IMG/VR virus record: IMGVR_UViG_3300020594_000001
Coordinates: 45,600 to 109,599 of that record
DNA: 64,000 bases
DNA from: a virus
Taxonomy: Duplodnaviria > Heunggongvirae > Uroviricota > Caudoviricetes
Reading direction: 5' to 3' (one strand)
How positions within the stretch are numbered: position 1 is the stretch's first letter; every line of letters begins with the position of its first letter. Shown here one piece after another: positions 4,228 through 63,728 of the stretch. The notes under the pieces are model-generated. The model did no database searches, was not told the origin of the DNA, and saw only the letters and a list, made by a program, of their open reading frames with translations. The position numbers were made by a program, and so were the translations under genes.

Positions 4228-4314
4228 ATCATGTCTGCCAACGAGAAGGAATCGAACCTTCGCCTTCGACCTCGCGAGTCGTTGCTCTACCAAACGCGCA
4301 TCGTTGGCAGACAT
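4228..4314 (-). other. tRNA-like element, a degenerate cloverleaf with anticodon GCG (Arg-like), enclosed in a 16-bp inverted repeat
   Basis: On the minus strand: acceptor GCCAACG/CGTTGGC, D-arm GCGC-GTTTGGTA-GAGC, anticodon loop TCGCGAG, T-arm GAAGG-TTCGATT-CCTTC. Defects are C at position 33, one extra nt before the 3' acceptor strand, and no encoded CCA. The stem is extended by ATCATGTCT/AGACATGAT. Confidence 0.4.
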
Positions 4315-4959: not shown

Positions 4960-5220
4960 TCATGCGCCCGCAGATGAGGATGCGACATCGCGCAACAGCG
5001 CCTTGAATTGCTCTTCAGACAGAGGCTCTCCCGACAGCTCGCCCGGCTCAATGGTTGAATCCATGTAAGACCATCCGTTCCACCAGTCAGCGACATACCA
5101 TTTCGTTCCATCGCCGGGAACCGACCTGTCTAGCTTCACGAGCTCGCCATGCACGTTGCGGAAGATCATGCCCTCTTCGAGCTCGTATCGGCGCTCATAC
5201 CAGTCAATTTCCTTGCTCAT
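4960..5220 (-). CDS. hypothetical protein, 86 aa
   Basis: A strong AGGGGGAA Shine-Dalgarno lies immediately 3' of the tmRNA coding piece. Confidence 0.5.
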   Translation of the reverse strand: MSKEIDWYERRYELEEGMIFRNVHGELVKLDRSVPGDGTKWYVADWWNGWSYMDSTIEPGELSGEPLSEEQFKALLRDVASSSAGA

Positions 5221-5221
5221 G

Positions 5222-5662
5222 TGCTTCCCCCTACGTTGCGCTTCAATGATGGCCCCCGGCTTCTGTTGCCACCTGCCGGGGAAGGCCGTTACCGCTTAAG
5301 CAGCGGCACGGATGTAGTCGTCGTTGGCGTCTACAAGTTTTGCTTGGTTTATACGGCTCCGCTTGCCGAGTAGTTCGATTCGCTTCAGTATGTCTGTCGA
5401 AACCATGTCAGCCCCATCAGGAATTCCCTCGCCACTTTCGTCGGAGCAACCCGACTACTTGCTTCACTCACCAGTCCGTCGTTATGCGCACTTACGATAG
5501 GACTCGTGGGCCGTCTTGCCCCTCTATGGGCAGTCACGGAGGGAATTCCTGGTGGAGCTGGCGGGAGTCGAACCCGCGTCCAGACACCATTCACTGCACG
5601 TCTCGCGCCCCCCTCCGGCTAGAGGAAGTCGCACACTACCATCATCGAAGCGGGCCGGGCTT
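5222..5662 (-). ncRNA. ssrA: circularly permuted two-piece tmRNA gene: acceptor piece about 5550..5662, intervening hairpin 5416..5547, coding piece about 5222..5415
   Basis: The minus strand reads ...GGACGCGGGTTCGACTCCCGCCAGCTCCACCA (T-arm, acceptor 3' strand, CCA), ending at 5550. The tRNA-like 5' end GGGGCTGACATGGTTTCGACAG starts at 5415, after the CCA. A tag frame GCC AAC GAC GAC TAC ATC CGT GCC GCT GCT TAA (ANDDYIRAAA) lies at 5296..5328. A 14-bp complement links the coding-piece 3' end to the acceptor-piece 5' end. Confidence 0.7.
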
Positions 5663-28167: not shown

Positions 28168-29367
28168 CTATGCCCCCTTCACGCAAAGAATCTGCTTCAG
28201 GACGTGAACCACTTCAACCAGGTCGCGCTGGTTTTCCATCACTACGTCGATGTCTTTGTAGCTACTGGGAATTTCATCCAGAACCGCATCATCTTTTCGG
28301 CACTCGACGCCACGCGTTTGCTCTTCGAGGTCAGCGACGCTGAAAAGCTTGCGTGCTTTACTGCGCGACATCTTCCGCCCTGCCCCGTGTGAACATGAGC
28401 AATACGAATCCAGATTGCCCTTTCCACGCACGATATAGCTCTTCTGGCCCATCGAACCAGGAATGATGCCCAGATCACCCTCACGAGCTCGAATCGCACC
28501 CTTGCGAGTCACCCAAAGGTTCTTGCCGAAGTGGTTTTCGCGTGCCACGTAGTTGTGATGGCAGTTGATCGCTTCCTGGGTAATGGTGAACTCAACGGGA
28601 ATGTGTCGTCGCAGGGCTGCGATTACCGCTACCATCATTTCAGCCCGATTTTCCAAGGCGTATGCTTGGGCCCACTCAACTGCCTCCATGTAATCGTTGA
28701 AGTCGTCGGTGTCTTCAGGAAGGTATGCCAAATCGCCATCAGGCAAGTGAATAAAGAACCGCTCCATCGTGCGCTTAGCCTTTGCGATGTAGTGGTTACC
28801 GATCATGTTGCCGATACCACGCGAGCCCGAGTGCAGCATGATCCAGACATCGTCATTCTCGTCAATGCAGAGCTCAACGAAGTGGTTGCCGCTACCCAGA
28901 GTGCCAAGCTGCGCGGTAGCTTTCTTCGCAGCTTTGTGGGCGCTTTCGCTGCCCCGCTCGCCGAAAACTTCCTGAACACTTGGAGGGACATCAAGTATCG
29001 TGGCTGGCCCCCTGCCCTGCTTGTGCGCGCCACCGGCACCCAGCGGCACGTCGCGCTCAATCTGATGACGAATGCTCACCAGTGAATCGGGCAGATCAGA
29101 CGCCTTCAGAGACAGGCGCACAGCGTTCATGCCGCAGCCGATGTCAACACCGACAGCGGCGGGGATAATTGCCTTATCAGTGGCAATAACCGAACCAATC
29201 GTCGAGCCCTTCCCTGCATGAACATCGGGCATCAACGCAACGCCATTGCCAGCGATGAACGGGAGCCGCGCGAGGTTCTTGGCTTGGTTCAGCGCTTCTT
29301 CCTCGATATCGTCGGTCCATACTTTAATGGGGCGAGGCAGGGTCTCGTCGTGAATCACTTTCATCAA
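28168..29367 (-). CDS. rtcB: RtcB-family RNA 3'-phosphate ligase
   Basis: Family motifs MPDVHAGKGSTIGSV, CHHNYV and SHGAGR; 399 aa. Confidence 0.8.
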   Translation of the reverse strand: MMKVIHDETLPRPIKVWTDDIEEEALNQAKNLARLPFIAGNGVALMPDVHAGKGSTIGSVIATDKAIIPAAVGVDIGCGMNAVRLSLKASDLPDSLVSIRHQIERDVPLGAGGAHKQGRGPATILDVPPSVQEVFGERGSESAHKAAKKATAQLGTLGSGNHFVELCIDENDDVWIMLHSGSRGIGNMIGNHYIAKAKRTMERFFIHLPDGDLAYLPEDTDDFNDYMEAVEWAQAYALENRAEMMVAVIAALRRHIPVEFTITQEAINCHHNYVARENHFGKNLWVTRKGAIRAREGDLGIIPGSMGQKSYIVRGKGNLDSYCSCSHGAGRKMSRSKARKLFSVADLEEQTRGVECRKDDAVLDEIPSSYKDIDVVMENQRDLVEVVHVLKQILCVKGA

Positions 29368-31072: not shown

Positions 31073-31475
31073 TGCCGTTCTGGGAATGCAACGCCAAATA
31101 AGCGCTTACTTTCCACCCGTCGGTTGCGTGGCCCTGCTCGGTGGCTGCAGCAATAAGCATCGCTTCTGCCGCCTCTTCCCCTCCCTTGCTCCACCTGGGT
31201 GGCAGGTCAACTTCGGTGTAAAACTTGAACAACTCTCGCTCCATGGTTTTGCCAACGCGATCAAGACCACGCACCGTGCATTCGATAGCGGGGCGAGCCT
31301 GAAGCGCCGAAAGCGCCCGAGAAAACTCCTTATGGCTGATACGCAGTTCCACGAACTCGGTTCTACTACTTCTGTCTTCAATTCTGATGGTTACGCCGTC
31401 TTCACCGTCTTCGCACCCACCGATCTTCGGATAACTAATACTTAGGGTTGCATCTATTTCTTTGCTAAAAGACAC
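31014..31475 (-). CDS. hypothetical protein, 153 aa
   Basis: Minus-strand ORF. Confidence 0.4.
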   Translation of the reverse strand: MSFSKEIDATLSISYPKIGGCEDGEDGVTIRIEDRSSRTEFVELRISHKEFSRALSALQARPAIECTVRGLDRVGKTMERELFKFYTEVDLPPRWSKGGEEAAEAMLIAAATEQGHATDGWKVSAYLALHSQNGNGKDADGRRWYLLSKTRYV

Positions 31476-31695
31476 CGTAGCTCTCCTGTGTTTTCTTTGC
31501 TTGAAACTCGCGCTCTTGCTCGATCATTTCGCAAGCTGCGGTATTCATCATTTCATCAACCGTGTCCAGGCTGAACGAGTGGTGTCTACGCTCACCACCC
31601 CAGCCCATACCACCGCTAATAAGCGATGCGGCCTTTTCCACCGCGCTCATGCGCTCCGACATGATCAGCTCTTCGAGCTCTGCCAGGGCGTCCAT
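31465..31695 (-). CDS. hypothetical protein, 76 aa
   Basis: Minus-strand ORF. Confidence 0.4.
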   Translation of the reverse strand: MDALAELEELIMSERMSAVEKAASLISGGMGWGGERRHHSFSLDTVDEMMNTAACEMIEQEREFQAKKTQESYGVF

Positions 31696-31922
31696 CAGTC
31701 TGCTTCTCCGACAATGCAGCCCATTCCGGTCTTGAAACCTAACTCGTTCTCGACCCCGAAGATGATTACGCGGTCACAAACAATTTTCTTTTTAATGGGC
31801 TCGCTGTATAGCAACTTGCCGTTATACGAGACGTTCAGGGTGTCATTCAGGCGCAGGTGTATGGGCCCCACCTGCGCGTCCCTGAGTATCTTGAAGCCCC
31901 TGCTTTCGAGAAGAGAAACCAT
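31695..31922 (-). CDS. hypothetical protein, 75 aa
   Basis: Minus-strand ORF. Confidence 0.4.
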   Translation of the reverse strand: MVSLLESRGFKILRDAQVGPIHLRLNDTLNVSYNGKLLYSEPIKKKIVCDRVIIFGVENELGFKTGMGCIVGEAD

Positions 31923-31963
31923 GCCTGCACCTCATGAAGCCCGGGCGAACCCGGGTTTGATCG

Positions 31964-32821
31964 CTACCTTACGTTGACAAAGGGCAGTGCCGACCCAGGG
32001 ACCATGGTTGCGGGCAATTTTCCGTCCCACTTATCGACCGCGTTCAGGCTGACCAGATTGGTGTTTGCCGCCAATGCTTTCGCCCGCGCTTCGATTGCAT
32101 ACGCTTCAGCGTCGCCCATAACCTTGATTGCCTCCGCTTCTGCATTTGCTTCTTTAAGTCGGGATGTGGCGCGTCCCTCTGCTTGGGCTACCGCAATCTG
32201 GGCATTCACCAATTCACTCTGGAGGTTCTGGTTCTTGGTGGCGATTTGGACTTCTGCCAACATGCGCTGCTCGACCGAATCTTCGTATGCTTGAGAAAAA
32301 GCGATTTCCTCAATCTGAACTCCCGCTAGTTGAATGGCGGGCACCGACTTAAAATCAGCCTTGAGTGCTTCAAGCACCTGTCGCCCGAAGCTTTCTCGCT
32401 CCTTAATCGCGTTCATGGCCGTGAATTTGCCAAAGACGTTTTTAACCACGTCATAGGTCTTCGGTTCGACCACCCGCGCTTGTAAGTTCCCAGCGGTGCC
32501 ATACTTCGTGTAGACATCGGCAACATGCGCGTCGATCACACTCCACGTAACCGACACGCGCATGGTCGCAGGCTGTTGGTCAGCACTGTAACCTTCGAGA
32601 TCTGTGAAGGTCAGCTTGGTGTCTCGTGTTGAAATGAACTTGACGTCTTCGATGAATGGCGTCTTGAAGTGCAAGCCCGGGTCGGCTACGTCGGTTACCT
32701 TGCCATAGCGTAGCTGCACCGCCCTTTCACCCTGGTCGACGGTGTAGAAGCTCCCGAACGATGCTGCTGCGATGATTAGACCTGCCAGAATGGCGAAGCC
32801 TGCGATCAGATGTGCTCTCAT
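31964..32821 (-). CDS. SPFH/band-7 family membrane protein (HflC/prohibitin-like)
   Basis: N-terminal transmembrane segment, then the SPFH core (YTVDQGERAVQLRYGKV ... ) and a C-terminal coiled-coil-like region. Confidence 0.65.
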   Translation of the reverse strand: MRAHLIAGFAILAGLIIAAASFGSFYTVDQGERAVQLRYGKVTDVADPGLHFKTPFIEDVKFISTRDTKLTFTDLEGYSADQQPATMRVSVTWSVIDAHVADVYTKYGTAGNLQARVVEPKTYDVVKNVFGKFTAMNAIKERESFGRQVLEALKADFKSVPAIQLAGVQIEEIAFSQAYEDSVEQRMLAEVQIATKNQNLQSELVNAQIAVAQAEGRATSRLKEANAEAEAIKVMGDAEAYAIEARAKALAANTNLVSLNAVDKWDGKLPATMVPGSALPFVNVR

Positions 32822-32823
32822 TT

Positions 32824-32937
32824 ACGTTTTGTTCCCTTATTACGGTTGTTGAATAGACCAATGACGCGCACCGCACCCACGACAAGTAGCGCCGTGAATA
32901 CAGCGAGCCCGATGATTTGAAGAATGACTCCCATAAC
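32824..32937 (-). CDS. small membrane peptide, 37 aa (MGVILQIIGLAVFTALLVVGAVRVIGLFNNRNKGTKR), probably coupled to the SPFH gene
   Basis: Its TAA stop overlaps the SPFH ATG in a TAAATGA arrangement. Confidence 0.4.
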
Positions 32938-32955
32938 TCACCTTATAGTAAGTGC

Positions 32956-33534
32956 TTACTCTAATTCGGAGACGAAAAGATCGCTGGTTTTGTCGAGGGC
33001 TTCCCCGCAGAACGTCGCCAGCTTGCCAAGCTTTATAGTCTCGTCTTTGTTAAGGAAGTATGCAGACCTATTGATGACCAGCTTTGTCACCAATTTGCCC
33101 TCAATAAGCACCAAGCTGGCTTCAATCTGGACTCCCCCTGGCGCGTCACTGACGACTTCAAGTGGGGCTACTTCGGACTGAATGGGCTTTGAAGGTGGCT
33201 TCGTGGGTGCGTTCTTGGTGTAACCACCGTTGATACTCCCGAGCGGAAATTCGTGCTTAACCGCTTCTGTCACGAACGCCTCCAGACTGTCCTCGCTGAC
33301 GTAGACAGCCCCATCGGGCAGCTTCGTAGTGGTCATCTTGGCCCATGCGGGCGTGTTCGTTCGTGTTGACCGTTTGCCGCGTGAGTAGTTGTGTATGAAC
33401 GCGGTCCAGTAACCCTGGGGTAGGTCGCTATCGAGCGTGGACTTGATCAGCGTGGCGCTTTCAACAACGGTATACCAGCGCTTGCCATCCTTGTCAGTAA
33501 TCATGATTGGAACTCGGGTTGGGTCAGCATCCAA
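32956..33534 (-). CDS. hypothetical protein, 192 aa
   Basis: The palindromic motif at 32945..32961 lies in the short gap after its stop (towards the SPFH operon), not upstream of its start. Confidence 0.45.
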   Translation of the reverse strand: MDADPTRVPIMITDKDGKRWYTVVESATLIKSTLDSDLPQGYWTAFIHNYSRGKRSTRTNTPAWAKMTTTKLPDGAVYVSEDSLEAFVTEAVKHEFPLGSINGGYTKNAPTKPPSKPIQSEVAPLEVVSDAPGGVQIEASLVLIEGKLVTKLVINRSAYFLNKDETIKLGKLATFCGEALDKTSDLFVSELE

Positions 33535-33860
33535 TCAATCCAGCGCAGACGCACTGCCCTGAAGTCGACCTCATACTCATTCGCCCACACTTCATCATGG
33601 CGCACATACCCCTGATCCGCTATCCACCTCTCCAGGGTATTGACCCGGGGCCAACCAAGCAGGCCATTAATGAAACCCCTGACGCTATCTTTAGCCGCCC
33701 TGGTTTTAACCTGATTGTCCAAAGAAGTTTGCGGATGCCCCAAATACTTGGAGACGACCGCTTCAGCTGCGAGACATATGTAGCGCTCGCGTCCGCTTTC
33801 GATTAGCTTTCGCGCGCGAAGCAGAATTTCGCGCTTGGTTAATGGTCGACCACGACTCAT
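33501..33860 (-). CDS. hypothetical protein, 119 aa
   Basis: Minus-strand ORF. Confidence 0.4.
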   Translation of the reverse strand: MSRGRPLTKREILLRARKLIESGRERYICLAAEAVVSKYLGHPQTSLDNQVKTRAAKDSVRGFINGLLGWPRVNTLERWIADQGYVRHDEVWANEYEVDFRAVRLRWIDWMLTQPEFQS

Positions 33861-34174
33861 TGCGTTACTCCTTTCTCGACTTGCGATGCCATGAAGCTCA
33901 AAAGCTCTTTGGCGCTCATTTGGCCTGATTCGAATTCGTCGGGTATCGGGCCAGCGTATTTGATTCGAACGGCAGTGCCACCCCGCGTAATGCCCTTGAT
34001 CAGCGCGATGCTTTTGCGCGGATGAAGCTCGTAAGTGATGGTGGTGCCGTTAAGCGTAACGACGTCGTAGCTACCGTCACCATTGTCAGTTTCGACCCGA
34101 AACGCAATCGACAGCACATTGGTTTCGGGGGAGCCACCCCCGATGACTTGGCCTACCTTGAAGTCTGTCAGCAT
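33857..34174 (-). CDS. hypothetical protein, 105 aa
   Basis: Minus-strand ORF. Confidence 0.4.
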   Translation of the reverse strand: MLTDFKVGQVIGGGSPETNVLSIAFRVETDNGDGSYDVVTLNGTTITYELHPRKSIALIKGITRGGTAVRIKYAGPIPDEFESGQMSAKELLSFMASQVEKGVTQ

Positions 34175-34183
34175 GACGCCCTC

Positions 34184-34882
34184 TTACGCTGCGTCAGCAA
34201 CCGATTCGGGCGTGTCTTCGTCGTTCGCAGCGCCCTTGGGTGGCAGACCTGCTTTCTTCAGTTCTGCAAGAATGTTTGTCGTTACCGGAACGAGCGCGAA
34301 GCCACGCACGTCGTCATTCAGATCGCTGATGCCGACGATTTCCTTCAGTTCGGGGATTGCGATGTAGAAGTCGCGAAGCGTTTTAGCGGCATGAAGGTTC
34401 GACCGCATTTGGCTGATGAACTCTGGCAGGCTGTCACATATCTCTTTCAGCCGACGTTCCAGCGCTTTAAGACGACGCCCCTCGTTGGCGGTCAGGGTGA
34501 CAGGAAGGAGTTTGCTGTAACTGCCTGACGGTCCCGAAACCTCAATGTAGTCTCGATACCCGCATGTGAGCTTAATATTCAGTTGTGCGCCCGACCGCTC
34601 AAACCGCAAGGTGGGAAACTCAAGCTCTTCAGATTGACGTTCCTTCGCGGTGCGGTAGGTGAAGGTCGCAACGGTGTCGCTCACGAGATACTTCTGTATC
34701 GCTTCGTCTTTTCGCGCTTCGAAGTAGGCTGCGTGGTGCTTGGCAACCATTTCTTGCGCAAAAGTCCGGAATTGCGCTTGCAGGTCTTCAATACGCTTCT
34801 GGAAAGTGGTTCGGACCACTTTCTCAAGAATGCTGTTGCGCAACTCAGCGGACATCCGCTTCAGGGATTCTTTGACTGCCAT
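34184..34882 (-). CDS. hypothetical protein, 232 aa
   Basis: Minus-strand ORF. Confidence 0.45.
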   Translation of the reverse strand: MAVKESLKRMSAELRNSILEKVVRTTFQKRIEDLQAQFRTFAQEMVAKHHAAYFEARKDEAIQKYLVSDTVATFTYRTAKERQSEELEFPTLRFERSGAQLNIKLTCGYRDYIEVSGPSGSYSKLLPVTLTANEGRRLKALERRLKEICDSLPEFISQMRSNLHAAKTLRDFYIAIPELKEIVGISDLNDDVRGFALVPVTTNILAELKKAGLPPKGAANDEDTPESVADAA

Positions 34883-45491: not shown

Positions 45492-45820
45492 GTCTCAACA
45501 TCGAACATACCTATGTGACAATCGGATTTTGGAATGTTCAGCTTCTGTGCCAGTAGCTCATATGCCCGGCTGCGGGTGAATGCGCCCGTCTTCCAGAGTG
45601 GGTCGAACGCAGCATGCGCCCGCATCTTTGCACTTCGCAGAGCCCCGTTTGCCAGTCGACCCAAGGGCTTATCAGTGCCTTTATGGCAACCGACATACGC
45701 ATCGCACGGCGCGCACAGATAGAAAAGTTGCTCGAACAAGTCTGGACGATGCGGGTATATCTTGCGCCCCGTCACAAGGCTGCTTGGCCCCCTGCAGTAT
45801 GAGCACTGAACAATTCTCAT
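45437..45820 (-). CDS. zinc-finger protein, 127 aa
   Basis: Start trimmed to MRIVQCSYC. Cys clusters CSYC ... CAPC. Confidence 0.4.
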   Translation of the reverse strand: MRIVQCSYCRGPSSLVTGRKIYPHRPDLFEQLFYLCAPCDAYVGCHKGTDKPLGRLANGALRSAKMRAHAAFDPLWKTGAFTRSRAYELLAQKLNIPKSDCHIGMFDVETCRQVAMVAKTIWGSPLE

Positions 45821-52766: not shown

Positions 52767-55700
52767 TCAGTTGGTTAGTTCTGCGATTTGGGCGCAGGTT
52801 TGTTGAAGCAGCTTGATCTTGCTCGCGTCGAAGTAGATGGTGCTCGGATTCATTCCAAAGACGATGCTGGCGTCCAAGGCGGGATCGAAGATTGTCTTGC
52901 CCACTAACTCTGTGGGGTTACCCTTGGTCGACGGGGCAAAGTAGCGAATGGCATTACCACCCATGGCGACAATGACGGCGGGCTTGAGAATTTCAATTTC
53001 CCGAGCCAGATACTTTGAGCAACCATTGATTTGCTCTGTCGAAAGCACCTTCTGCTCTTTTGGTTTTACTGACTTCACCAGGGAAGTGTAGTAACCGTCG
53101 TTAGGACTGAGACCCGCGTCTTTGAGCGCCGCGCGAACCGCGTCACCAACGTCGCCCGACAGCATTTTTCCGTCTTGCGCTTCCTTCCAGTTGGGGGAGT
53201 CGAACACCATCATGAAGCGTGGCTTCTTACCCATGCTGGGCGTGGGGTGCTGCCCGCCAGACAACGAGCAACCGTCGCAAACACGCATTTCTCCGATGAT
53301 TTCTGCAATCTTCAGCTGAGCGATACGGTCGGCATTGAGCCCACGGTCCGCCTTCACTGCGTCAACGGTGTATCCCGGCATGAGTTCCAGGCGGTCTTTC
53401 AGTCGGTCAGGGTGCAGCGCAGGCAAGCCGTCGCCAAGCGATGCAAAAGCGCCCACCTTGCGTAGCACCTCTTTGTGGCGCACGTTGATTTTGCCCGCGA
53501 CGGTGCTCTTGGCGACCTCTTCAAACTGATCGAACGACTCGAAGGGTTTACCCTGGGCAGCGCGCACCTCAAGAATCTTCGCAGCCACGTTTACGCTGAT
53601 ACCCTTGATGGCCTGGAATGGCGCATAGAGTGTGCGTTCACCATCGATTGTGATTGTGTCGGACGACTTATTGATATCCGGTGGCAGCACGTCGATCCCG
53701 TGCGTCTTGGCGTCCATCATGATGGGCGCAAGCTTGTCGTCATCGTCGACCACCGACATAGACGCCGCATAGAACTCAGCTGGGTAATAGACCTTGAGCC
53801 ACATCATCTGATAGGAAATCAAGGTGTATGCGAACGCGTGGGACTTATTAAAGCAATACGCGGCAAAGCCCTCGATGTCGTTCCAAAGTGCCTGCGCATC
53901 AAGCTCACTCATGCCACTGGCGACTGCGCCATCGATGAACTGTTGGCCCATCGTTGCCATCTTGTCCTTGTCTTTCTTACCGATCGCTTTACGAAGCCCG
54001 TCAGCTTCTGCGCCGGTAAACCCGCAAAGGTCGACCGCGATTCGGGATACCTGCTCTTGGTAGACCGTAACCCCGAATGTTTCGCGCAGCGCGGGTTCGA
54101 CCAGCGGACTGATGTAGCTGGGCAGTTTCTTGCCTTGCTTAACTGCGATGTATTGATCCATCAGCCCCGCGTCGATTGGACCCGGACGAAACAGTGCTGT
54201 CGCGGCGGCGATATCCTCGAACGTCAGAGGCTCTAACACCGCCAAATCTTTCAGCAGCTTGCGCATGCCCGAGCCAGAAAACTGAAACACGCCCACCGTA
54301 TCGCCTCGACCAAATGCTTCAAGCACCTTACGATCGTCCAGCGGCAGCGCCAGCAGGTTGATCGTCTTATGATGGCGCTCTTTGATATAGCGACGGGCAT
54401 GCGCAAGCACGTCGAGCGTAGACAGACCCAGAATGTCCATCTTGACGAGGCCGAAGTCTTCAACCACGCTTTTATCCCAGTTCACCACCGGCAGCGCACC
54501 CTCTTGACGCTGCATCACCACCGCGCGGGTGTTGATGTCATCGTGCGCGACAATGACGCCCGCTGCGTGCTGCCCCAGGTTACGCATGTTCCCTTCGAGC
54601 GTCGTCGCATGGTTCCATATGACGGGATGCTCAGCCTTGAACTTTGCAATATCTGGCACGCTCGCCGCAGACTCTTCGAGCGGAAGCGAAACCCCGTGCT
54701 CCTTCTCCATTTGCTTGGAACACGAATATTCGTAGGGCTTCAGACCATGCACACGGGAGACGTCCCGAAGTGACGAAGCGGAGCCCAGGGTCGAATAGTT
54801 CGAAATGCCCGCGACTTTGGCGCGACCAAACCTGCCCACGATATACTCGACGACTTCGCCTCGTCGTGAGCTCATGAAGTCCATGTCCACGTCAGGCAGG
54901 TCGATACGGTCGGGATTGATGAAGCGTTCGAACAGAAGGCCAAACCGAATCGGGTCTAAGTCTGTAATGCCAAGCAGGTATGACACCAATGAGCCCGCAG
55001 CTGAACCGCGACCAGGGCCAACGATGACGTCTTGCGCTTTTGACCAACCGACAATCTCTTGAACAAGCAAGAAGTAGTTCGAGAACCCGAGGCGTCGCAG
55101 CACGCCAAGCTCATACGCCAAGCGCTCCTTATACCTCTGCATATCTTCGGGCGCGGGCTTGTGGCCCAGCACTTCACTACCAAAGCGTTTTACCCAGCCT
55201 TCTTTGCAGCGCTCTAGCAACGTCTTGAATGCGTCTTCAGCCATATGGGGCAGCGACGCAGGCATCTTCTCGAAGCGATAGAAGCACTGCTCGACAATCT
55301 GATCCATGGACGCGAAACTTTGCTTAACTTCATCGCCATTCATTCCGATACGGCGGGCGGTCGAAATCATTCGCGTCGCGAGCTCTTTGGGGTCATCGAA
55401 GCACCAATCCCGGGTAGCTGGCACAGGCAGCTGGGGAGAGCCCATGGTGTATGTTCCAGAGCTTGTGATGGCCCTGAGAACATCATGGCTTGCAGCTTGG
55501 TCGCTTGATGCATAAAAGCGCGGGTAGCCCGCAATCAGCGGTAGCCCACGACTGCGGGCGCATGCCAGCGCTTTGCGGTTGAGCGTGTCGAACAACATGC
55601 TCTGAACCGGCGTAATCTCGATATAGAGCGGGTGTTTCTCCGACAGCGCTTGGACGATTTCGCCTGCCTTGGGGTGATGAAACAGGCAGAATAGGTCACC

Positions 55701-56135
55701 CGTTGTGACAATCACGTCTTCAAGCGCCAGCACCTGTGAAAGCTCGGTGCGGGCATGGTAGTAAAACTGGTCAGCGCTGTTTGCCTTAGACAGCAAGCCC
55801 ATCAGCGACCGCAAACCCGTCTCGGTCTTTACGTAAACCTTGATTTGAAAAGAGTGGTTTCGAACCTCAACCGCGCCCTCTTTCTTCTTTTGCTGAGCGG
55901 TGGGCGGGCGATAAGTTGCGCTGTCATATACACGAAGCGTGCACCCAAGAACAGGGGTAATGTCGTGCTTCTTGCAAGCAGACGAGAATGCGGGCAAGCC
56001 CGATATCGTCATGGTGTCTGTGAGCGCGATCGATTTGAAGCCCAACTCTTTGGCGCGCTCAACCATCGGCACCACCTGCAAGATTGACTCCCCGACAGAG
56101 TGATCAGACCGAACAGACAGTGCATGTTGTAACAC
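52767..56135 (-). CDS. dnaE: DNA polymerase III alpha subunit (DnaE-type)
   Basis: N-terminal PHP domain and the palm region GPGRGSAAGSLVSYLLGITDLDPIRFGLLFERFINPDR; 1122 aa. Confidence 0.85.
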   Translation of the reverse strand: MLQHALSVRSDHSVGESILQVVPMVERAKELGFKSIALTDTMTISGLPAFSSACKKHDITPVLGCTLRVYDSATYRPPTAQQKKKEGAVEVRNHSFQIKVYVKTETGLRSLMGLLSKANSADQFYYHARTELSQVLALEDVIVTTGDLFCLFHHPKAGEIVQALSEKHPLYIEITPVQSMLFDTLNRKALACARSRGLPLIAGYPRFYASSDQAASHDVLRAITSSGTYTMGSPQLPVPATRDWCFDDPKELATRMISTARRIGMNGDEVKQSFASMDQIVEQCFYRFEKMPASLPHMAEDAFKTLLERCKEGWVKRFGSEVLGHKPAPEDMQRYKERLAYELGVLRRLGFSNYFLLVQEIVGWSKAQDVIVGPGRGSAAGSLVSYLLGITDLDPIRFGLLFERFINPDRIDLPDVDMDFMSSRRGEVVEYIVGRFGRAKVAGISNYSTLGSASSLRDVSRVHGLKPYEYSCSKQMEKEHGVSLPLEESAASVPDIAKFKAEHPVIWNHATTLEGNMRNLGQHAAGVIVAHDDINTRAVVMQRQEGALPVVNWDKSVVEDFGLVKMDILGLSTLDVLAHARRYIKERHHKTINLLALPLDDRKVLEAFGRGDTVGVFQFSGSGMRKLLKDLAVLEPLTFEDIAAATALFRPGPIDAGLMDQYIAVKQGKKLPSYISPLVEPALRETFGVTVYQEQVSRIAVDLCGFTGAEADGLRKAIGKKDKDKMATMGQQFIDGAVASGMSELDAQALWNDIEGFAAYCFNKSHAFAYTLISYQMMWLKVYYPAEFYAASMSVVDDDDKLAPIMMDAKTHGIDVLPPDINKSSDTITIDGERTLYAPFQAIKGISVNVAAKILEVRAAQGKPFESFDQFEEVAKSTVAGKINVRHKEVLRKVGAFASLGDGLPALHPDRLKDRLELMPGYTVDAVKADRGLNADRIAQLKIAEIIGEMRVCDGCSLSGGQHPTPSMGKKPRFMMVFDSPNWKEAQDGKMLSGDVGDAVRAALKDAGLSPNDGYYTSLVKSVKPKEQKVLSTEQINGCSKYLAREIEILKPAVIVAMGGNAIRYFAPSTKGNPTELVGKTIFDPALDASIVFGMNPSTIYFDASKIKLLQQTCAQIAELTN

Positions 56136-57465: not shown

Positions 57466-58629
57466 TTAGCCAAAAATGCGCGCAGCGACAGCGTCGACAG
57501 CTTCCTTATCCACGCGGGACAGTTTGTTGGCAAAGCAGACCGCGAGTCCTGCGCGGTAGCTACCCTTCATGAGACCGATACGCGATGCTGCGATCAGCGT
57601 GCGCGGGCTAATCGGGGCGCTGATCTTTGCGCCTTCGAACTGCTCGCGAACCCGGTTAGCGAAATCGACCATCTTCTTGGCGTCCGCCAGGGCGATGCCG
57701 CCCTGCTTGACCAGAATCTGCTCTTCGCGATCGGGGGCCATATACTTCATTTCCAGCACCATATGGAAACGGTCGTAGTTGGCGGCGTTCTGGATATTGG
57801 TGCCCTGATACAGCCCGGTTTCGTCGCCCGAGCCGTTGGTGTTGCCGGTCGCCACGAAGCGAAAGTTCGGGTGTGGGCGAATGATCCGGTTGGCAGCGTC
57901 CGCCTCTTTGATGACCAGGGGCTTTCCCTCAAGCACGGGCTGATACACTGCCAGCACCGATGGCAACGCGAAATCGTATTCGTCTGCCAGATACACCCAG
58001 CCGTTTTTCATGGCTACCGCCAAGGGGCCAAGCTCGAAGATTGTTTCGCCAGCGCGAGCGGTCCATTGGCCGACGATATGGGATTCTTCGGTGTTCAAGG
58101 TATGCTGAACACGAATCAGCGGTCGCTGGGTGCGGGCCGCGACTTGCTCGACCGCTGCAGTCTTGCCTACGCCCGCGTGGCCCCACGAATAGAGGGGGAT
58201 GCCAATTTCGAACGCCATCAGCATGTTGCGCAGCGTTTCGTTGTCGAACACGTAGTTCTTGTCGATGTCCGGTATCATTTCTGCGTCGTCGCCTCGATCG
58301 AAGACGGTGACAGGAATGGGCTCGCCGCGCTTGTTCAGAGCAGTCTTGTCGTCGCCCAGGTCAAACAGCACATGCATGGGCTGGCGGGTTACACCGCCCA
58401 CACTGGTCGTCATTTCCGTAACGGTGCTGGCCGCGCCCTCTTCCTTTGTCGCCCCGTCTTTAAGCGCTTGGCGACGTGCAATCTCTTCTTGCGCCTCACT
58501 GCTGAGCAATTCAGCGCCCGGGTAGGTGTCTTTGTATTCCTGCAGTGAGACCTCGGGATGCTCCTTCCTCAAGTGCGCCGAAATGACGTGGACCTTGGCA
58601 CCACAGATTTTGCAATCGATTTGAGACAT
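57466..58629 (-). CDS. MoxR/CobS-like AAA+ ATPase with N-terminal zinc ribbon
   Basis: Walker A GHAGVGKTAA and Walker B WVYLADE; N-terminal CKICG...H..H. Confidence 0.6.
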   Translation of the reverse strand: MSQIDCKICGAKVHVISAHLRKEHPEVSLQEYKDTYPGAELLSSEAQEEIARRQALKDGATKEEGAASTVTEMTTSVGGVTRQPMHVLFDLGDDKTALNKRGEPIPVTVFDRGDDAEMIPDIDKNYVFDNETLRNMLMAFEIGIPLYSWGHAGVGKTAAVEQVAARTQRPLIRVQHTLNTEESHIVGQWTARAGETIFELGPLAVAMKNGWVYLADEYDFALPSVLAVYQPVLEGKPLVIKEADAANRIIRPHPNFRFVATGNTNGSGDETGLYQGTNIQNAANYDRFHMVLEMKYMAPDREEQILVKQGGIALADAKKMVDFANRVREQFEGAKISAPISPRTLIAASRIGLMKGSYRAGLAVCFANKLSRVDKEAVDAVAARIFG

Positions 58630-58754
58630 GTTTGCTCCGTAAAAATAGCGTGAGCGCTCACTTACAATCTTTCTTATAGTAAACGCTTACTTCAAGACGT
58701 GGATATTATGCAGCAAAACCGAATTTGGAGATAGTGCTTACTCCAAATATTGGG

Positions 58755-60683
58755 CTAATTTTTCACAAGCAGCTTTTTGATTTCCCGTATCACTGTCCCG
58801 GGGAGGTCACTAACGTTATTTAACGTCACGCACTTCGGATAGTATTTCTTGGGGTCGCTGGTCTGAATGCCGATGCCCAAGACCTCGATTCCACCCTTCT
58901 CTGCATCCTTGACGGCACCCTTGAGGTGGGCGTGTAAAAGACCACTGTCATGGGCGCATGCGGGCTTGCCATCAGAAAGAACCATCAGTATCTTTCGTTT
59001 CTCGCGGCGCTGCGATAAGCGGGTTGCCGCAATCTGCACGCACTCGCCATCGACGTTATTGCGCAACAGTCCGTGCTGGTAAGAACGGTTGCCCAGATAA
59101 GCCAGCCGGTTCTTCACTGTTGGCGTCACACGCTCGGCAAAACCCTTAATAATGGGCATATTCAACGCTTCATACCGCGCATACGTAACGCCCAAGCGTC
59201 GGGCTTCCGAATGGGCTTCAGCACTAAAATCCCGCCCCGTGCTGAAGCCCAACACCTCAGTCGAGATTCTTATTCGTTCCAGCACAGAAGCCAGCGCATA
59301 AGCGGTTTCCGAAGCAACTCGAATGCGGTTGTTAGACGTCATCGAGCCAGAGCAATCGATCAACAGCGTCACCGCGACATCGTTTGCGGTGTGTTCATGC
59401 TTGCGTCGAAACGCTCGCTCATCGTTGAACGAGGTCAGGCGCGCCAGAGCGGTGGCGTTGATGCGCCCTGAGCGATGGCCTGCAGTCCAGATTGACTTGC
59501 TCATAGAGGCAATGGCGCGCTCCAGGTCTTTTTGCAGCGGACCCACCATATGGTCAACCCGATCCTGCATGTCTTTGACGCTCGCCTCGTGGAACTCGCC
59601 CGCATCAAGCGGCTCGATTTTGTCGTGATCGGTCGTCCACACTAGATACTTCGCATCACGCGCAGCGCGCGCGCTGACATTGCTCAGCACTTCGTCCAGC
59701 TTCTTATCAAAGCCTGAAAGCTCTGATGAGTCGGACAGTTTTTTCTTTGGCTTCTCTGACGGTTTTTCATCTTCGCCCGGCTTCTCGTCACCTTCAGAGC
59801 CTTCGTCGTCGTCGTCAGTGCTTTCGTCGCTTTCGTCAGAATCGTCGCTTTCGTCGCTTTCGTCAGAATCGTCAGAGTTGTCTTCCCCGTCCGTTGACTC
59901 CGCTTCTTCAGATTCCAAGTCTTCAGATTCCAAGTCTTCAGATTCCGGGGCCTCCTTTTCGCGCTCTTTCTCGCCACCCTTGGCAGATTTTTTCTTAGAC
60001 TTGTTGCCCTTGGCCGTCTTCTTGCTCTCGCTGGGCGAATCGCCATCAGCGTCGCCCTCTTCAGAGTCTTGATCGAGAAGCTTTGCTGCGTGCTTGGCTA
60101 CCCGTAAAGCATCGGCGCTGGAAGCGATCTTTGGAAGCTCGCGGGTCAAGTATTCGCCTACCTTGGACATCGGCTCTTCTACAATCGACCACTTGTCCTC
60201 CATGTAGTCTTTATAGATGGCCTGCCCCGCCAGCGCACGCACAGCAGGGACCATCACCGCCCCCACGACATCTTCGCCGCCTTCTGCAATTTTCTTGTCT
60301 GTATAGTTTTGCAGAAAGAAGCGACCGACGCTGGAAAGGTGATTTCCACTACCAGGGAATACCTCAGCCATCCTCCGCTCTACGAAGGTGTCTTCGATCA
60401 GGTTGTGTAAACCAGCAACACCCTGCTTACTGGCTTGATCAATAACGCTTACGTCTGAAAAGAGCGCGTGACCGACCTCATGGTCTAAGAACCCTTCGAT
60501 GGCATCCAAGAATTCTTGCGACGCGTCATCAGGGATATAGGGAATATTGATAAGCTCAATTTCCCCCGACCTTGTGTATTTTGTATATGCTTTACTACCT
60601 TGCTGCGTTACCTTTATTTTTTTCCGCGCCAGCATAGCCACTACCGCACTGACTTTTTCACGCACCAAGATAGATTTTTTCAT
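58755..60683 (-). CDS. CobT-like vWA-domain protein with long acidic Ser/Asp/Glu repeat linker
   Basis: C-terminal vWA MIDAS VTLLIDCSGSM, and a DSDESDESDDSDESDES / LESEDLESEDLESEE low-complexity region. Confidence 0.55.
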   Translation of the reverse strand: MKKSILVREKVSAVVAMLARKKIKVTQQGSKAYTKYTRSGEIELINIPYIPDDASQEFLDAIEGFLDHEVGHALFSDVSVIDQASKQGVAGLHNLIEDTFVERRMAEVFPGSGNHLSSVGRFFLQNYTDKKIAEGGEDVVGAVMVPAVRALAGQAIYKDYMEDKWSIVEEPMSKVGEYLTRELPKIASSADALRVAKHAAKLLDQDSEEGDADGDSPSESKKTAKGNKSKKKSAKGGEKEREKEAPESEDLESEDLESEEAESTDGEDNSDDSDESDESDDSDESDESTDDDDEGSEGDEKPGEDEKPSEKPKKKLSDSSELSGFDKKLDEVLSNVSARAARDAKYLVWTTDHDKIEPLDAGEFHEASVKDMQDRVDHMVGPLQKDLERAIASMSKSIWTAGHRSGRINATALARLTSFNDERAFRRKHEHTANDVAVTLLIDCSGSMTSNNRIRVASETAYALASVLERIRISTEVLGFSTGRDFSAEAHSEARRLGVTYARYEALNMPIIKGFAERVTPTVKNRLAYLGNRSYQHGLLRNNVDGECVQIAATRLSQRREKRKILMVLSDGKPACAHDSGLLHAHLKGAVKDAEKGGIEVLGIGIQTSDPKKYYPKCVTLNNVSDLPGTVIREIKKLLVKN

Positions 60684-62118: not shown

Positions 62119-62412
62119 ATGAGCCCTACCGAAATTGTTCTGAAGCAGTTCCCCAATCGTGTTTCTTTGTCTGTGGCAGAAGCGGGCGCGGCCCTGGGCT
62201 ACGCTCGCCAAACCACCTACAACCTGAAAGCGAAAGGGAAATTTCCCGTCAGGATCAGCTTCGCGGGCAAGACTCCGATCGTCCATCTGCACGACCTCAT
62301 CAGCTTCCTAGAGGGCTTTCCCGCTTCGAACGATTCCAACTTCACCCCAGCACCCAAGAAGAAAGGGCGTCCCTCGAAAGCGGACGCCCTTCGCAAAGCA
62401 GGGGTGATCTAA
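62119..62412 (+). CDS. AlpA/Xis-family excisionase or DNA-binding protein
   Basis: LSVAEAGAALGYARQTTYNLKAKGKFP is a MerR-like winged HTH of the AlpA type. It overlaps the int stop. Confidence 0.6.
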   Translation: MSPTEIVLKQFPNRVSLSVAEAGAALGYARQTTYNLKAKGKFPVRISFAGKTPIVHLHDLISFLEGFPASNDSNFTPAPKKKGRPSKADALRKAGVI

Positions 62413-63506
62413 GCGACTTTCGTTGCTTCGCTGCGGTTGGCGGCGACTCGCTCCGCCATCTTCTGAGCCAAGAATTTGGCGTTCAAATGAGTGTATCGCC
62501 TCAGCTGACGGTAGTCACGGTGCCCAGTAACTGCCGCTGCCTCCACTAAGCTCATACCCAAGTCTTCGAAAAGTCTGCTCGTCGCTTCATGGCGCGCGTC
62601 ATGCAGACGCAAATCTTTGAATAGTTGTGGGTCGGGGGCGATGCCCTGCTCCAGACACTCTTTCTCATAGATTTCTCGGGCACGCTTTCGCGCACGACCA
62701 AATGCCTGGGTAAGCGAGTCAGCTGCCACACCAAAAACCCTTCCTTCCTTGCGATCCCCGATAACTTCGCGTAGCACTTCTGCAACACCGGGCAGGATCG
62801 GAATCGTTCGATCATCGCCATTCTTGGTGTCGGGCAAAAACACTGTCGCGTCTCGTAGGTTAACGTGCGGGATTTCCATTTCAGCAGCTTCACCTCGGCG
62901 CATCGCGCTATTAACCGCCACATAGAGAAACGCTTTGAGCGCTGGTGAATTGCTTGCCTCGACGATCTTTGTATATTCATAGTCCGCCTCGTTCATTTCA
63001 CAAACGAAACGCCTGGTTCGCCCCTTTGGGGCGGCGGGGCGTTTAAGACCTTCTATGGGATTCTTGAGGCCCTTGAAGTCGTTGCATTCCGATATGGCGA
63101 AGTTATAGAACGACGAAATCATCCCTAACTCGCGAATGACTGTCCCTTTGGACACCGTCAGCAGTCGAGTGTTTCGGTATTCGCGAAAATCGGACAATCC
63201 ACAATCGAGCAACTCTTTGCGCGCCAAGGGCAATCTCTTCAGCCGCAAGATGAAGTTGAGCTCCTGCTTTGCACCCTTTTTGGACGGCACGGCCTTCTCC
63301 TGGCAATAGTCCAAAAGGTCGTAGAGCCGCTTTCCCTTAAGGTGCCGCATGTCGACAAAGGTCTTTTCCTTAATCGCCTTCTCAGTCTGTTCCGCCCATT
63401 CTTCTGCTTCGCGGCGGGTGGGGAAGGTTTCTGATAACGACGGGGTGCCCTTAACCCGCACCTTTGCCCTGAACTGGTATGGGCCACGCTCTTCAATGAC
63501 AGCCAT
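62409..63506 (-). CDS. int: tyrosine-type phage integrase
   Basis: C-terminal catalytic motifs LHDARHEA and TGHRDYRQLRRYTHL (R..H..R..Y); adjacent to a tRNA. Confidence 0.85.
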   Translation of the reverse strand: MAVIEERGPYQFRAKVRVKGTPSLSETFPTRREAEEWAEQTEKAIKEKTFVDMRHLKGKRLYDLLDYCQEKAVPSKKGAKQELNFILRLKRLPLARKELLDCGLSDFREYRNTRLLTVSKGTVIRELGMISSFYNFAISECNDFKGLKNPIEGLKRPAAPKGRTRRFVCEMNEADYEYTKIVEASNSPALKAFLYVAVNSAMRRGEAAEMEIPHVNLRDATVFLPDTKNGDDRTIPILPGVAEVLREVIGDRKEGRVFGVAADSLTQAFGRARKRAREIYEKECLEQGIAPDPQLFKDLRLHDARHEATSRLFEDLGMSLVEAAAVTGHRDYRQLRRYTHLNAKFLAQKMAERVAANRSEATKVA

Positions 63507-63590
63507 AGCTCAATCTCCGATAAAAAAGTCTTCGCTTTGTTATAGGAGTCGCTGTCCCAAAAGTGTCCCAAATAATGTGCTAACTGGCTC

Positions 63591-63630
63591 TAAAAGCAAA
63601 AATGCACTTAGGGGAATTAACCCTAAGTGC
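63591..63630 (-). terminator. rho-independent terminator downstream of tRNA-Val
   Basis: On the minus strand the perfect 10-bp hairpin GCACTTAGGG-TTAATTC-CCCTAAGTGC is followed by ATTTTTGCTTTTA. Confidence 0.55.
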
Positions 63631-63652
63631 ATGATTTTGCGTAACTTCTAAG

Positions 63653-63728
63653 TGGTGGGTGCTACAGGGGTCGAACCTGTGACCTACGCCTTGTAAGGGC
63701 GCCGCTCTACCAACTGAGCTAAGCACCC
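63653..63728 (-). tRNA. tRNA-Val (anticodon TAC)
   Basis: Manual cloverleaf on the minus strand, GGGTGCTTAGCTCAGTTGGTAGAGCGGCGCCCTTACAAGGCGTAGGTCACAGGTTCGACCCCTGTAGCACCCACCA, with an encoded CCA. Confidence 0.85.

Follow-up and report, generated by a model that had tools for sequence, protein, structure and literature searches.

A phage-borne prohibitin-type SPFH gene overlaps a conserved, apparently undescribed mini-protein gene found in bacteria and phages

The window analysed in this study is a stretch of 64,000 nucleotides (nt) of viral DNA (Caudoviricetes; IMG/VR record IMGVR_UViG_3300020594_000001, positions 45,600 to 109,599). It contains two overlapping genes, the upstream one encoding a mini-protein of 38 amino acids (aa), MGVILQIIGLAVFTALLVVGAVRVIGLFNNRNKGTKRK, and the downstream one a 285-aa protein with an SPFH (Band_7) domain (Table 1). 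The peptide consists of a hydrophobic helix at approximately residues 2–22, which carries G9 and G20, and a basic C-terminal tail, NNRNKGTKRK. Sequence comparisons indicate that it is a conserved, apparently undescribed partner gene of a prohibitin-type SPFH clade in bacteria and phages. A preliminary description of the window had reported the pair as a 37-aa membrane peptide translationally coupled to an HflC-like protein. The observation itself is confirmed: the gene pair is real and lies on the minus strand. The end coordinate given for it, 32937, is 3 nt beyond the peptide ATG at 32934, and the peptide is one residue longer, as its final lysine had been dropped. The membership of the peptide in a conserved gene family, tied to an SPFH clade in bacteria and phages, had been missed.

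The peptide TGA and the SPFH ATG have 3 nt in common, and the resulting ATGA geometry corresponds to a 4-nt overlap. The overlap with the SPFH start had been described correctly as part of a TAAATGA junction, but TAA is not the stop codon: the TAA of CGTAAATGA is out of frame, and the in-frame stop is TGA. The peptide ATG is preceded by a good Shine-Dalgarno (SD) sequence, the SPFH ATG only by a weak one. Given the stop/start overlap, the strong SD on the peptide and the weak SD on the SPFH gene, SPFH translation looks coupled to the peptide open reading frame (ORF), and the weak AAGGGA may have a role in reinitiation. The spacer between the peptide gene and the upstream gene (stop at 32956), which had no Pfam match in a scan at E≤0.001, is 21 nt long. 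Neither a sigma-70-like promoter nor an intrinsic terminator was found in the region 31400–34300. The short spacer and the lack of such a promoter make joint transcription with the upstream genes probable. The hairpin downstream of the SPFH gene has no U-tract and folds with no greater stability than shuffled sequence (z=−0.3); it was rejected as a terminator candidate and is probably not one. The 38-aa ORF was also called by independent gene callers on other contigs with the same genes.

Table 1. Coordinates (window numbering) of the gene pair, its expression signals and other features of the window.
Feature	Position	Strand	Description
SPFH/Band_7 gene	31964..32821	−	285 aa, prokaryotic-prohibitin type; ORF list, PF01145, phrog_200, AlphaFold2 model
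Mini-protein gene	32818..32934	−	38 aa, single-pass; ATG 32934..32932, TGA stop 32820..32818; ORF list, family profile
ATGA stop/start overlap	32818..32821	−	peptide TGA (32818–32820) and SPFH ATG (32819–32821); read from sequence
SD-like AAGGTGAG	32937..32944	−	2 nt before peptide ATG; read from sequence
Weak SD-like AAGGGA	32833..32838	−	inside peptide ORF, 11 nt before SPFH ATG; read from sequence
Hairpin AAACCCGGG-UUCG-CCCGGGCUU	31937–31958	−	5 nt past SPFH stop
RtcB RNA ligase	28168–29367	−	Pfam 1.8e-127; 2.6 kb downstream of SPFH gene
CobS-like AAA+ and CobT/vWA-like pair	57466–60683	−	phrog_249; phrog_1576, phrog_17276; adjoins DnaE-type polymerase (52767–56135)
Integrase	62409–63728	−	tyrosine-integrase-like, phrog_1 2.3e-42; adjoins tRNA-Val(TAC) at 63653–63728

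The assignment of the 285-aa protein to the SPFH group was borne out by the profile check that had been proposed for it: PF01145 (Band_7) matches residues 27–215 at E=2.2e-35 (122.7 bits against a 23.6-bit cut-off). The protein also matches phrog_200 (4.5e-55). An AlphaFold2 model of the monomer, built on 67 homologues (pLDDT 84.4), contains an N-terminal helix (residues 2–22), a beta/alpha SPFH core (25–175) and one 76-residue helix (177–252), in line with the membrane anchor and long helical tail read earlier from the sequence. The last 30 residues (256–285) are of low confidence in the monomer; the alignment nevertheless places them among the best-conserved regions of the family, W265, G267, P270, P275 and P280 being invariant. 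Foldseek matches include HflC, HflK, PHB1/2, erlin1/2, stomatin, QmcA, flotillin and the major vault protein; E-values for HflC, HflK, PHB1/2, erlin, stomatin and QmcA range from 1e-16 to 1e-12, with no real preference among the first several. These relatives all form rings or cages (PMC12624060). The protein has the architecture of the cage formers and, by analogy, probably assembles in the same manner.

The flank N-terminal to the anchor is more positive than the C-terminal flank in 67 of 67 homologues. Following the positive-inside rule, the N-terminus would be cytoplasmic and the SPFH domain periplasmic. Two diverged members of the same family, N4 gp20 and SSU5_062, have a lipobox instead of the transmembrane anchor and therefore a periplasmic location, which is an independent argument for this orientation. 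The "lipoprotein" label of phrog_200 stems from such lipobox variants; it was rejected for the window protein, which has no Cys within its first 40 residues.

The first further case of the arrangement was Agrobacterium phage OLIVR2, where a 38-aa ORF, MFFKLIGVIVILVTLVVGAYWLATNIGFNKNQKTKKRK, overlaps the SPFH start by 4 nt. The arrangement was then found in related phage contigs, in a putative Castellaniella prophage and at a non-phage chromosomal locus of Bordetella. For a systematic survey, 80 loci from bacterial genomes and 80 loci from viral contigs were fetched. A hydrophobic ORF of 20–60 aa ending at the SPFH start was present in 89 of 169 homologous loci, compared with 355 of 6,760 control windows (5.3%). 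The stop/start spacing was −4 nt in 29 loci and −1, −8 or −11 nt in 25 more.

Profiles built from one part of the data recovered the peptide in the other. The profile made from bacterial peptides only gave 23 matches (E≤0.01) among 19,327 six-frame segments of the viral loci, and 23/23 were located directly upstream of the SPFH gene. In the reverse test, with the viral profile applied to the bacterial loci, 33 matches were upstream of the SPFH gene and one was elsewhere. A profile that did not include the window peptide had a sole match among the 1,868 six-frame segments of the window, namely the 38-aa ORF (E=3.6e-8; the next segment had E=3.5). An exhaustive profile search of 1.84 billion representative proteins yielded 164 peptide-family matches. 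Among the 150 matches listed, all except one (1,055 aa) were 31–64 aa long and nearly all were aligned from residue 1–3. When peptides were looked up by their own sequence, all seven were directly upstream of a Band_7 gene of the same clade, and four of the seven came from outside the training set.

The peptide is also constrained as a protein. G9 and G20 (window numbering) are invariant in 45 distinct peptide sequences with a mean identity of 24%; they are 11 residues apart, which is about three turns, and hence are on one face of the helix. The N-terminus is uncharged, with 0–4 residues before the helix, in 43 of the 45 members, and the tails are rich in K and R. For the first 25 codons of the Achromobacter/Bordetella set, 36 pairwise comparisons gave 303 synonymous and 10 non-synonymous changes, and the ratio of the proportions of non-synonymous and synonymous differences (pN/pS) was 0.014; the "Alcaligenes" and "phage AYWL" groups were left out, their start codons being out of register. 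Therefore strong purifying selection acts on the amino-acid sequence, not merely on an upstream reading frame. The window peptide has all features of the family: a length of 31–64 aa, one hydrophobic helix, glycines spaced as G-x10-G, a basic tail and a position directly upstream of a prohibitin-type SPFH gene.

No family of Pfam, NCBIfam or PHROG consistently matched the 45 members, and no paper describing such a peptide partner of SPFH genes was found in the literature. The databases that list such peptides call them "hypothetical" or "uncharacterised", and this includes entries of some Bordetella and Achromobacter depositors. Several identities were tried and rejected. Neither the window peptide nor any of the 45 members matches NfeD (PF01957), and the hhalign probability for YjeT/DUF2065 is 15%. 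Weak matches to HIG_1_N in 5 of 45 members (best 6e-4) were treated as noise caused by hydrophobic composition.

The presence of the peptide depends on the SPFH branch. It was found at 29 of 30 loci with SPFH identity to the window protein of at least 50%, at 53 of 117 loci with 40–50% identity, and at 7 of 21 with 30–40% identity. SPFH genes without it occur in Shewanella, Pseudomonas, Cellvibrio and Brucella chromosomes and in phages Skarpretter and GAP32. The distribution of the peptide follows the SPFH phylogeny, requiring 25 parsimony changes where shuffles require 51, but with repeated gain or loss. Upstream of lipobox SPFH variants, overlapping them or 3 nt away, N4 gp19 and SSU5_061 encode 66–68-aa proteins with two transmembrane helices and a basic tail. 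Their homology with the single-helix peptide was rejected, as they are not detectably related. A small membrane partner for SPFH proteins may thus be a recurring theme filled by different proteins. The N4 and SSU5 SPFH proteins themselves, which had appeared in a tblastn list as "C-terminal-only" homologues, turned out to be full-length and diverged.

Two further observations concern SPFH loci of this survey. The OLIVR2 locus (MT234339.1, ~15.5–16.4 kb; L003 2301–3271) is annotated on the wrong strand in GenBank, as gp50c and gp51c, "band 7-like"; on the opposite strand are the true genes for the 285-aa SPFH protein and the 38-aa peptide, neither of them annotated. At another locus (L117, 3524–3981) two small membrane ORFs stand in tandem upstream of the SPFH gene, and the second, of 96 aa, combines a peptide-like helix with a type-IV-pilin-like N-terminal methylation motif, GFSLIELIIIIAIMGILA. 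In the T4-like phage 44RR, an ORF with an "N-terminal methylation motif", 097c, adjoins the SPFH ORF 098c (PMC1524935).

By sequence similarity the SPFH protein belongs with the bacterial "prohibitin family" proteins. In a search of 5.8 billion proteins the closest named relatives were chromosomal "prohibitin family proteins" of Castellaniella (62% identity) and of Achromobacter, Bordetella and Pigmentiphaga (~54–55%); the nearest relatives are thus chromosomal genes of Alcaligenaceae (54–62%). Prokaryotic prohibitins have been classified as SPFH4, with no studied member and with no NfeD or other partner known (PMC2636767). The assignment of the window protein to SPFH4 is tentative and follows the automatic naming of its nearest named homologues and a fitting architecture, the searched libraries containing no curated SPFH4 model. 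Homologues were found in 198 GenBank phage records, with identity of at most 45%, and in 83 plasmid records. Phage SPFH genes had been noted by 2006 at the latest (PMC1524935) and are still termed unexplained (PMC13239085). A phage SPFH gene as such is ordinary, and this one is a new member of a well-known group.

The phage-type nature of the region, also proposed earlier, is evident from its replication, nucleotide-metabolism and integrase genes. The window encodes a DnaE-type DNA polymerase, both ribonucleotide reductase subunits, SbcCD, UvsX, ThyX, HU, a MazG-like protein and RtcB, along with the CobS/CobT-like pair and an integrase, and the cassette sits in the replication and nucleotide-metabolism block. 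The location of the integrase next to tRNA-Val suggests a temperate lifestyle with a tRNA-linked attachment site. When the 6 kb surrounding the locus were compared with GenBank phages by megablast, nothing matched, and the context given here comes from protein-level searches. An identical SPFH protein is present on a 109.6-kb contig, and the polymerase is ~43% identical to those of 112–122-kb Rhizobium and Pseudomonas phages. The gene order of the window is retained in a metagenomic relative (SPFH 72% identical) and in a 704-kb contig of Castellaniella sp. (GCA_034675905.1, JAUCCV010000002.1, 26–37 kb; SPFH 62%). In the latter the order is HU, ThyX, dUTPase, AAA_28, Nmad5, peptide, SPFH, and the 36-aa peptide ORF is uncalled in the public annotation. 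This locus, probably a prophage from the same lineage, indicates the group to which the hosts belong. From these comparisons we infer a ~110-kb temperate phage lineage with Alcaligenaceae-type hosts.

The pair is a core chromosomal one in Bordetella, Achromobacter and Alcaligenes, and the cassette is common to core bacterial chromosomes, plasmid-rich genera and many phages. On a neighbor-joining tree the SPFH proteins of the window, the metagenomic relative and Castellaniella fall inside a clade of 25 leaves, all peptide-positive, of which 21 are bacterial chromosomal. Since the window clade is nested among mostly chromosomal leaves, the cassette looks host-derived.

Other neighbors of the pair were considered as well. 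An SPFH protein of P. aeruginosa, PaFlo8, has been reported inside an rtc locus (PMC13086221), and RtcB is encoded close to the pair in the window (Table 1). A general link was rejected, as only 3 of 172 homologous loci have RtcB at a distance of 4 kb or less from the SPFH gene; the same applies to rIIA/rIIB (~5 of 172). Apart from these genes, the window contains a permuted (two-piece) transfer-messenger RNA (tmRNA) at 5296–5612 on the minus strand (RF04321, 106 bits against a gathering score of 47). The corresponding ARAGORN call spans 5205–5642, with the tag peptide ANDDYIRAAA; a tmRNA is unusual in an apparent phage genome. A weak Rfam tRNA match at 4237–4307, also on the minus strand (36.6 bits, E=4.8e-4), has no ARAGORN call.

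Several known systems resemble the pair in part. Among them are the prokaryotic prohibitins (SPFH4) and mitochondrial PHB1/PHB2: the nearest named relatives carry the name, PHB1 is as good a match as HflC, the Skarpretter homologue is annotated with an SPFH_prohibitin domain, and a single N-terminal anchor and an orientation away from the cytoplasm, presumed without a test, have been described for the prokaryotic group (PMC2636767). In contrast to that description, which knows no operon partner for SPFH4, a mini-protein partner is conserved in the clade studied here. In eukaryotes, prohibitins form heteromers of PHB1 and PHB2, whereas the window contains only one SPFH gene. SPFH-NfeD operons (QmcA-YbbJ, FloA-NfeD; PDB 8z5g) also have a co-expressed gene for a small membrane protein immediately upstream, and the partner belongs to the cage complex (PDB 8z5g; PMC13086221). 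However, the window partner is a 38-aa single helix with neither an oligonucleotide-binding (OB) fold domain nor an NfeD match, and QmcA faces the cytoplasm (PMC2636767), whereas the window SPFH domain is predicted to be periplasmic. In hflK-hflC-yjeT of E. coli a small membrane-protein gene (YjeT, DUF2065, 65 aa) is likewise linked to a periplasm-facing SPFH operon, but it is downstream, does not overlap and is unrelated to the peptide.

Other phage SPFH proteins (phrog_200, N4 gp20 with gp19, SSU5_062 with SSU5_061, the Skarpretter "band 7 protein", GAP32_025) belong to the same clade and share the tail ...KW(D/N)G.LP...PG...PF, though they are at most 45% identical to the window protein. 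The N4 and SSU5 proteins differ in the lipobox (LTSC, LTGC) that replaces the transmembrane anchor and in their non-homologous upstream protein, and Skarpretter and GAP32 have no partner.

The explanation towards which we lean, on balance, is a two-gene cassette of the inner membrane, made up of an SPFH ring or cage and a coupled intramembrane peptide, derived from the host and having a membrane role in the phage. The SPFH protein would be held by its one N-terminal anchor helix, with the SPFH domain and the long helix on the periplasmic side, and its ring or cage would fence off a patch of membrane, as in structurally solved relatives. The peptide would be translated from the same mRNA, with coupling through the stop/start overlap ensuring 1:1 synthesis. 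Because its N-terminus is short and uncharged and its tail K/R-rich, it is predicted to insert with the N-terminus out and the basic tail in the cytoplasm. It would then act as a stoichiometric intramembrane partner of the cage, either lining the fence or being an enclosed client, and would pack through the helix face bearing both invariant glycines. The cassette would have originated in bacteria and been acquired by a temperate phage lineage of ~110 kb with Alcaligenaceae-type hosts. Its place in the replication block and the failure to detect a promoter of its own suggest expression in lytic development rather than from the prophage, and therefore a role in membrane remodelling or stabilisation is favored: most likely, the host inner membrane would be reorganised or stabilised during infection. 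Quality control of membrane proteins would be one option, with FtsH as the obvious candidate by analogy.

A bolder form of this proposal seems possible but decidedly tentative. The G-x10-G mini-protein might be an obligate subunit, within the membrane, of periplasm-facing prohibitin-type cages, that is, a minimal functional counterpart of NfeD and the first operon partner of SPFH4. Many phage lineages might then carry both parts of the module to build a compartment of their own in the inner membrane of the host, for instance trapping FtsH or another host membrane protein while the infection proceeds.

Some observations weigh against the cassette as proposed. Roughly half of the homologous SPFH genes lack such a peptide, and at these loci no other small membrane ORF occurs upstream above the control rate (7 of 79 against 6.6%). 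Since peptide-less copies exist, the SPFH protein can work alone. The window peptide matches the bacteria-only profile at only E=0.0056. The topology is assigned by charge bias only, and the alignments reveal no obvious co-conserved face of small residues in the SPFH transmembrane helix. Finally, the neighboring genes yield no functional clue, RtcB and rII adjacency being as rare as given above.

The FtsH-specific, exclusion, toxin or holin, and pure-leader readings were rated lower than membrane remodelling. According to the first, which the preliminary description had put forward, the SPFH protein mimics HflC: it joins or replaces the host HflK/C cage, or cages FtsH, so that proteolysis of CII/CIII-like proteins shifts and biases lysis versus lysogeny. 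The protein shares with HflK/HflC the SPFH fold, the N-terminal anchor, the long helix and the predicted periplasmic orientation; HflC is nominally the best fold match (7vhq_G, 2.4e-16); and the phage appears temperate, with the integrase adjoining tRNA-Val and a related prophage. Small membrane peptides such as lambda CIII, SpoVM and MgtR are known as FtsH modulators. However, the protein scores 59.7 bits with the HflC model TIGR01932 (cut-off 134.4 bits) and 41.8 bits with NF008259 (cut-off 427 bits), and it also falls far below the cut-offs of both HflK equivalog models. BLASTP against E. coli HflC gives 23% identity with 54 gap columns, the insertion of HflC being missing, and the alignment with HflK spans only 41 residues. 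Prohibitin-1 matches the protein as well as HflC does, both by sequence and by fold, and so does erlin. No second SPFH-like (HflK-like) sequence is present in the 64-kb window (best other tblastn E=0.86). On the equivalog cut-offs, the HflC identity and the short HflK alignment, orthology with HflC or HflK was rejected: the 285-aa protein is not an HflC orthologue. Moreover, bacteria have this cassette as a core chromosomal pair outside any phage context, and in the window it is placed in the replication block and not beside immunity or regulatory genes. The FtsH idea is the standard literature analogy for prokaryotic prohibitins, for which the link was presumed without a test (PMC2636767), and the sequence lends it no specific support. 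The mimic interpretation is only partly supported, its HflC identity does not hold, and we consider the reading as a whole unlikely.

Superinfection exclusion or defence, in which a scaffold facing the periplasm, alone or together with the peptide, would keep incoming phages from DNA entry or from a functional receptor, is improbable too. The related SPFH variants of N4 and SSU5 are lipoproteins, and the cassette is frequent on prophages and megaplasmids. Lipoproteins are a class used by known exclusion proteins such as Llp and Cor. In the Vi01-like phage PhiSH19 the SPFH gene adjoins a gene annotated as a superinfection exclusion protein (PMC3220722). Against this, a PADLOC scan of the SPFH protein, the peptide and three neighbors gave no match to a defence model, and membership in a known anti-phage defence system was rejected. 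With a 21-nt spacer and no promoter or terminator of its own found, the cassette is probably expressed with the lytic replication genes and not from the prophage. It is present also in strictly lytic-type jumbo and N4-like phages, and its core chromosomal conservation in Alcaligenaceae points to a housekeeping role in the membrane.

In size and shape the peptide is similar to type I toxins and small holins, so that it might be a membrane-active peptide which the SPFH cage restrains or times in lysis or abortive infection. Marginal matches were obtained with holin phrog_1299 (0.0083), Hol_Tox (0.034) and a DinQ-like family (0.063), but each came from one of 45 members and is not significant, and a holin or toxin identity was rejected. 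There is no endolysin or spanin nearby, the annotated neighbors being replication and nucleotide-metabolism genes and the others having no assignment. The upstream, coupled peptide would be made at least as abundantly as its supposed inhibitor, and the pair is a stable core chromosomal one in several genera. We regard this reading as very unlikely. The last one, a translational leader that sets SPFH expression and encodes a functionless peptide, agrees with the stop/start overlap and weak SD, which make SPFH translation depend on the upstream ORF, but is extremely unlikely in view of the constraint at the amino-acid level (two invariant glycines, a hydrophobic helix and a basic tail across 45 sequences; the pN/pS value with its 303 synonymous changes) and of a family that its profile recognises in 164 clusters.

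Prohibitins, stomatins, flotillins, HflK/C and other SPFH proteins organise membranes universally, but few of their clients and accessory subunits are known. What is new here is an SPFH operon in which a mini-protein takes the place of NfeD, in an unstudied branch of prohibitins. The pairing of the peptide with the SPFH gene is statistically solid, apparently undescribed and directly testable. The coupled mini-protein provides a concrete experimental handle, and the two-gene unit is small enough for co-expression, cryo-electron microscopy and genetics; its carriers include the tractable genera Bordetella and Achromobacter as well as Agrobacterium phage OLIVR2 and Rhizobium phage RHEph10, both of them cultured. 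The case further illustrates how small proteins are overlooked by gene finders or receive no name, which happens in heavily sequenced pathogens too. Why SPFH genes are carried by so many phages, a long-standing puzzle, becomes a testable question.

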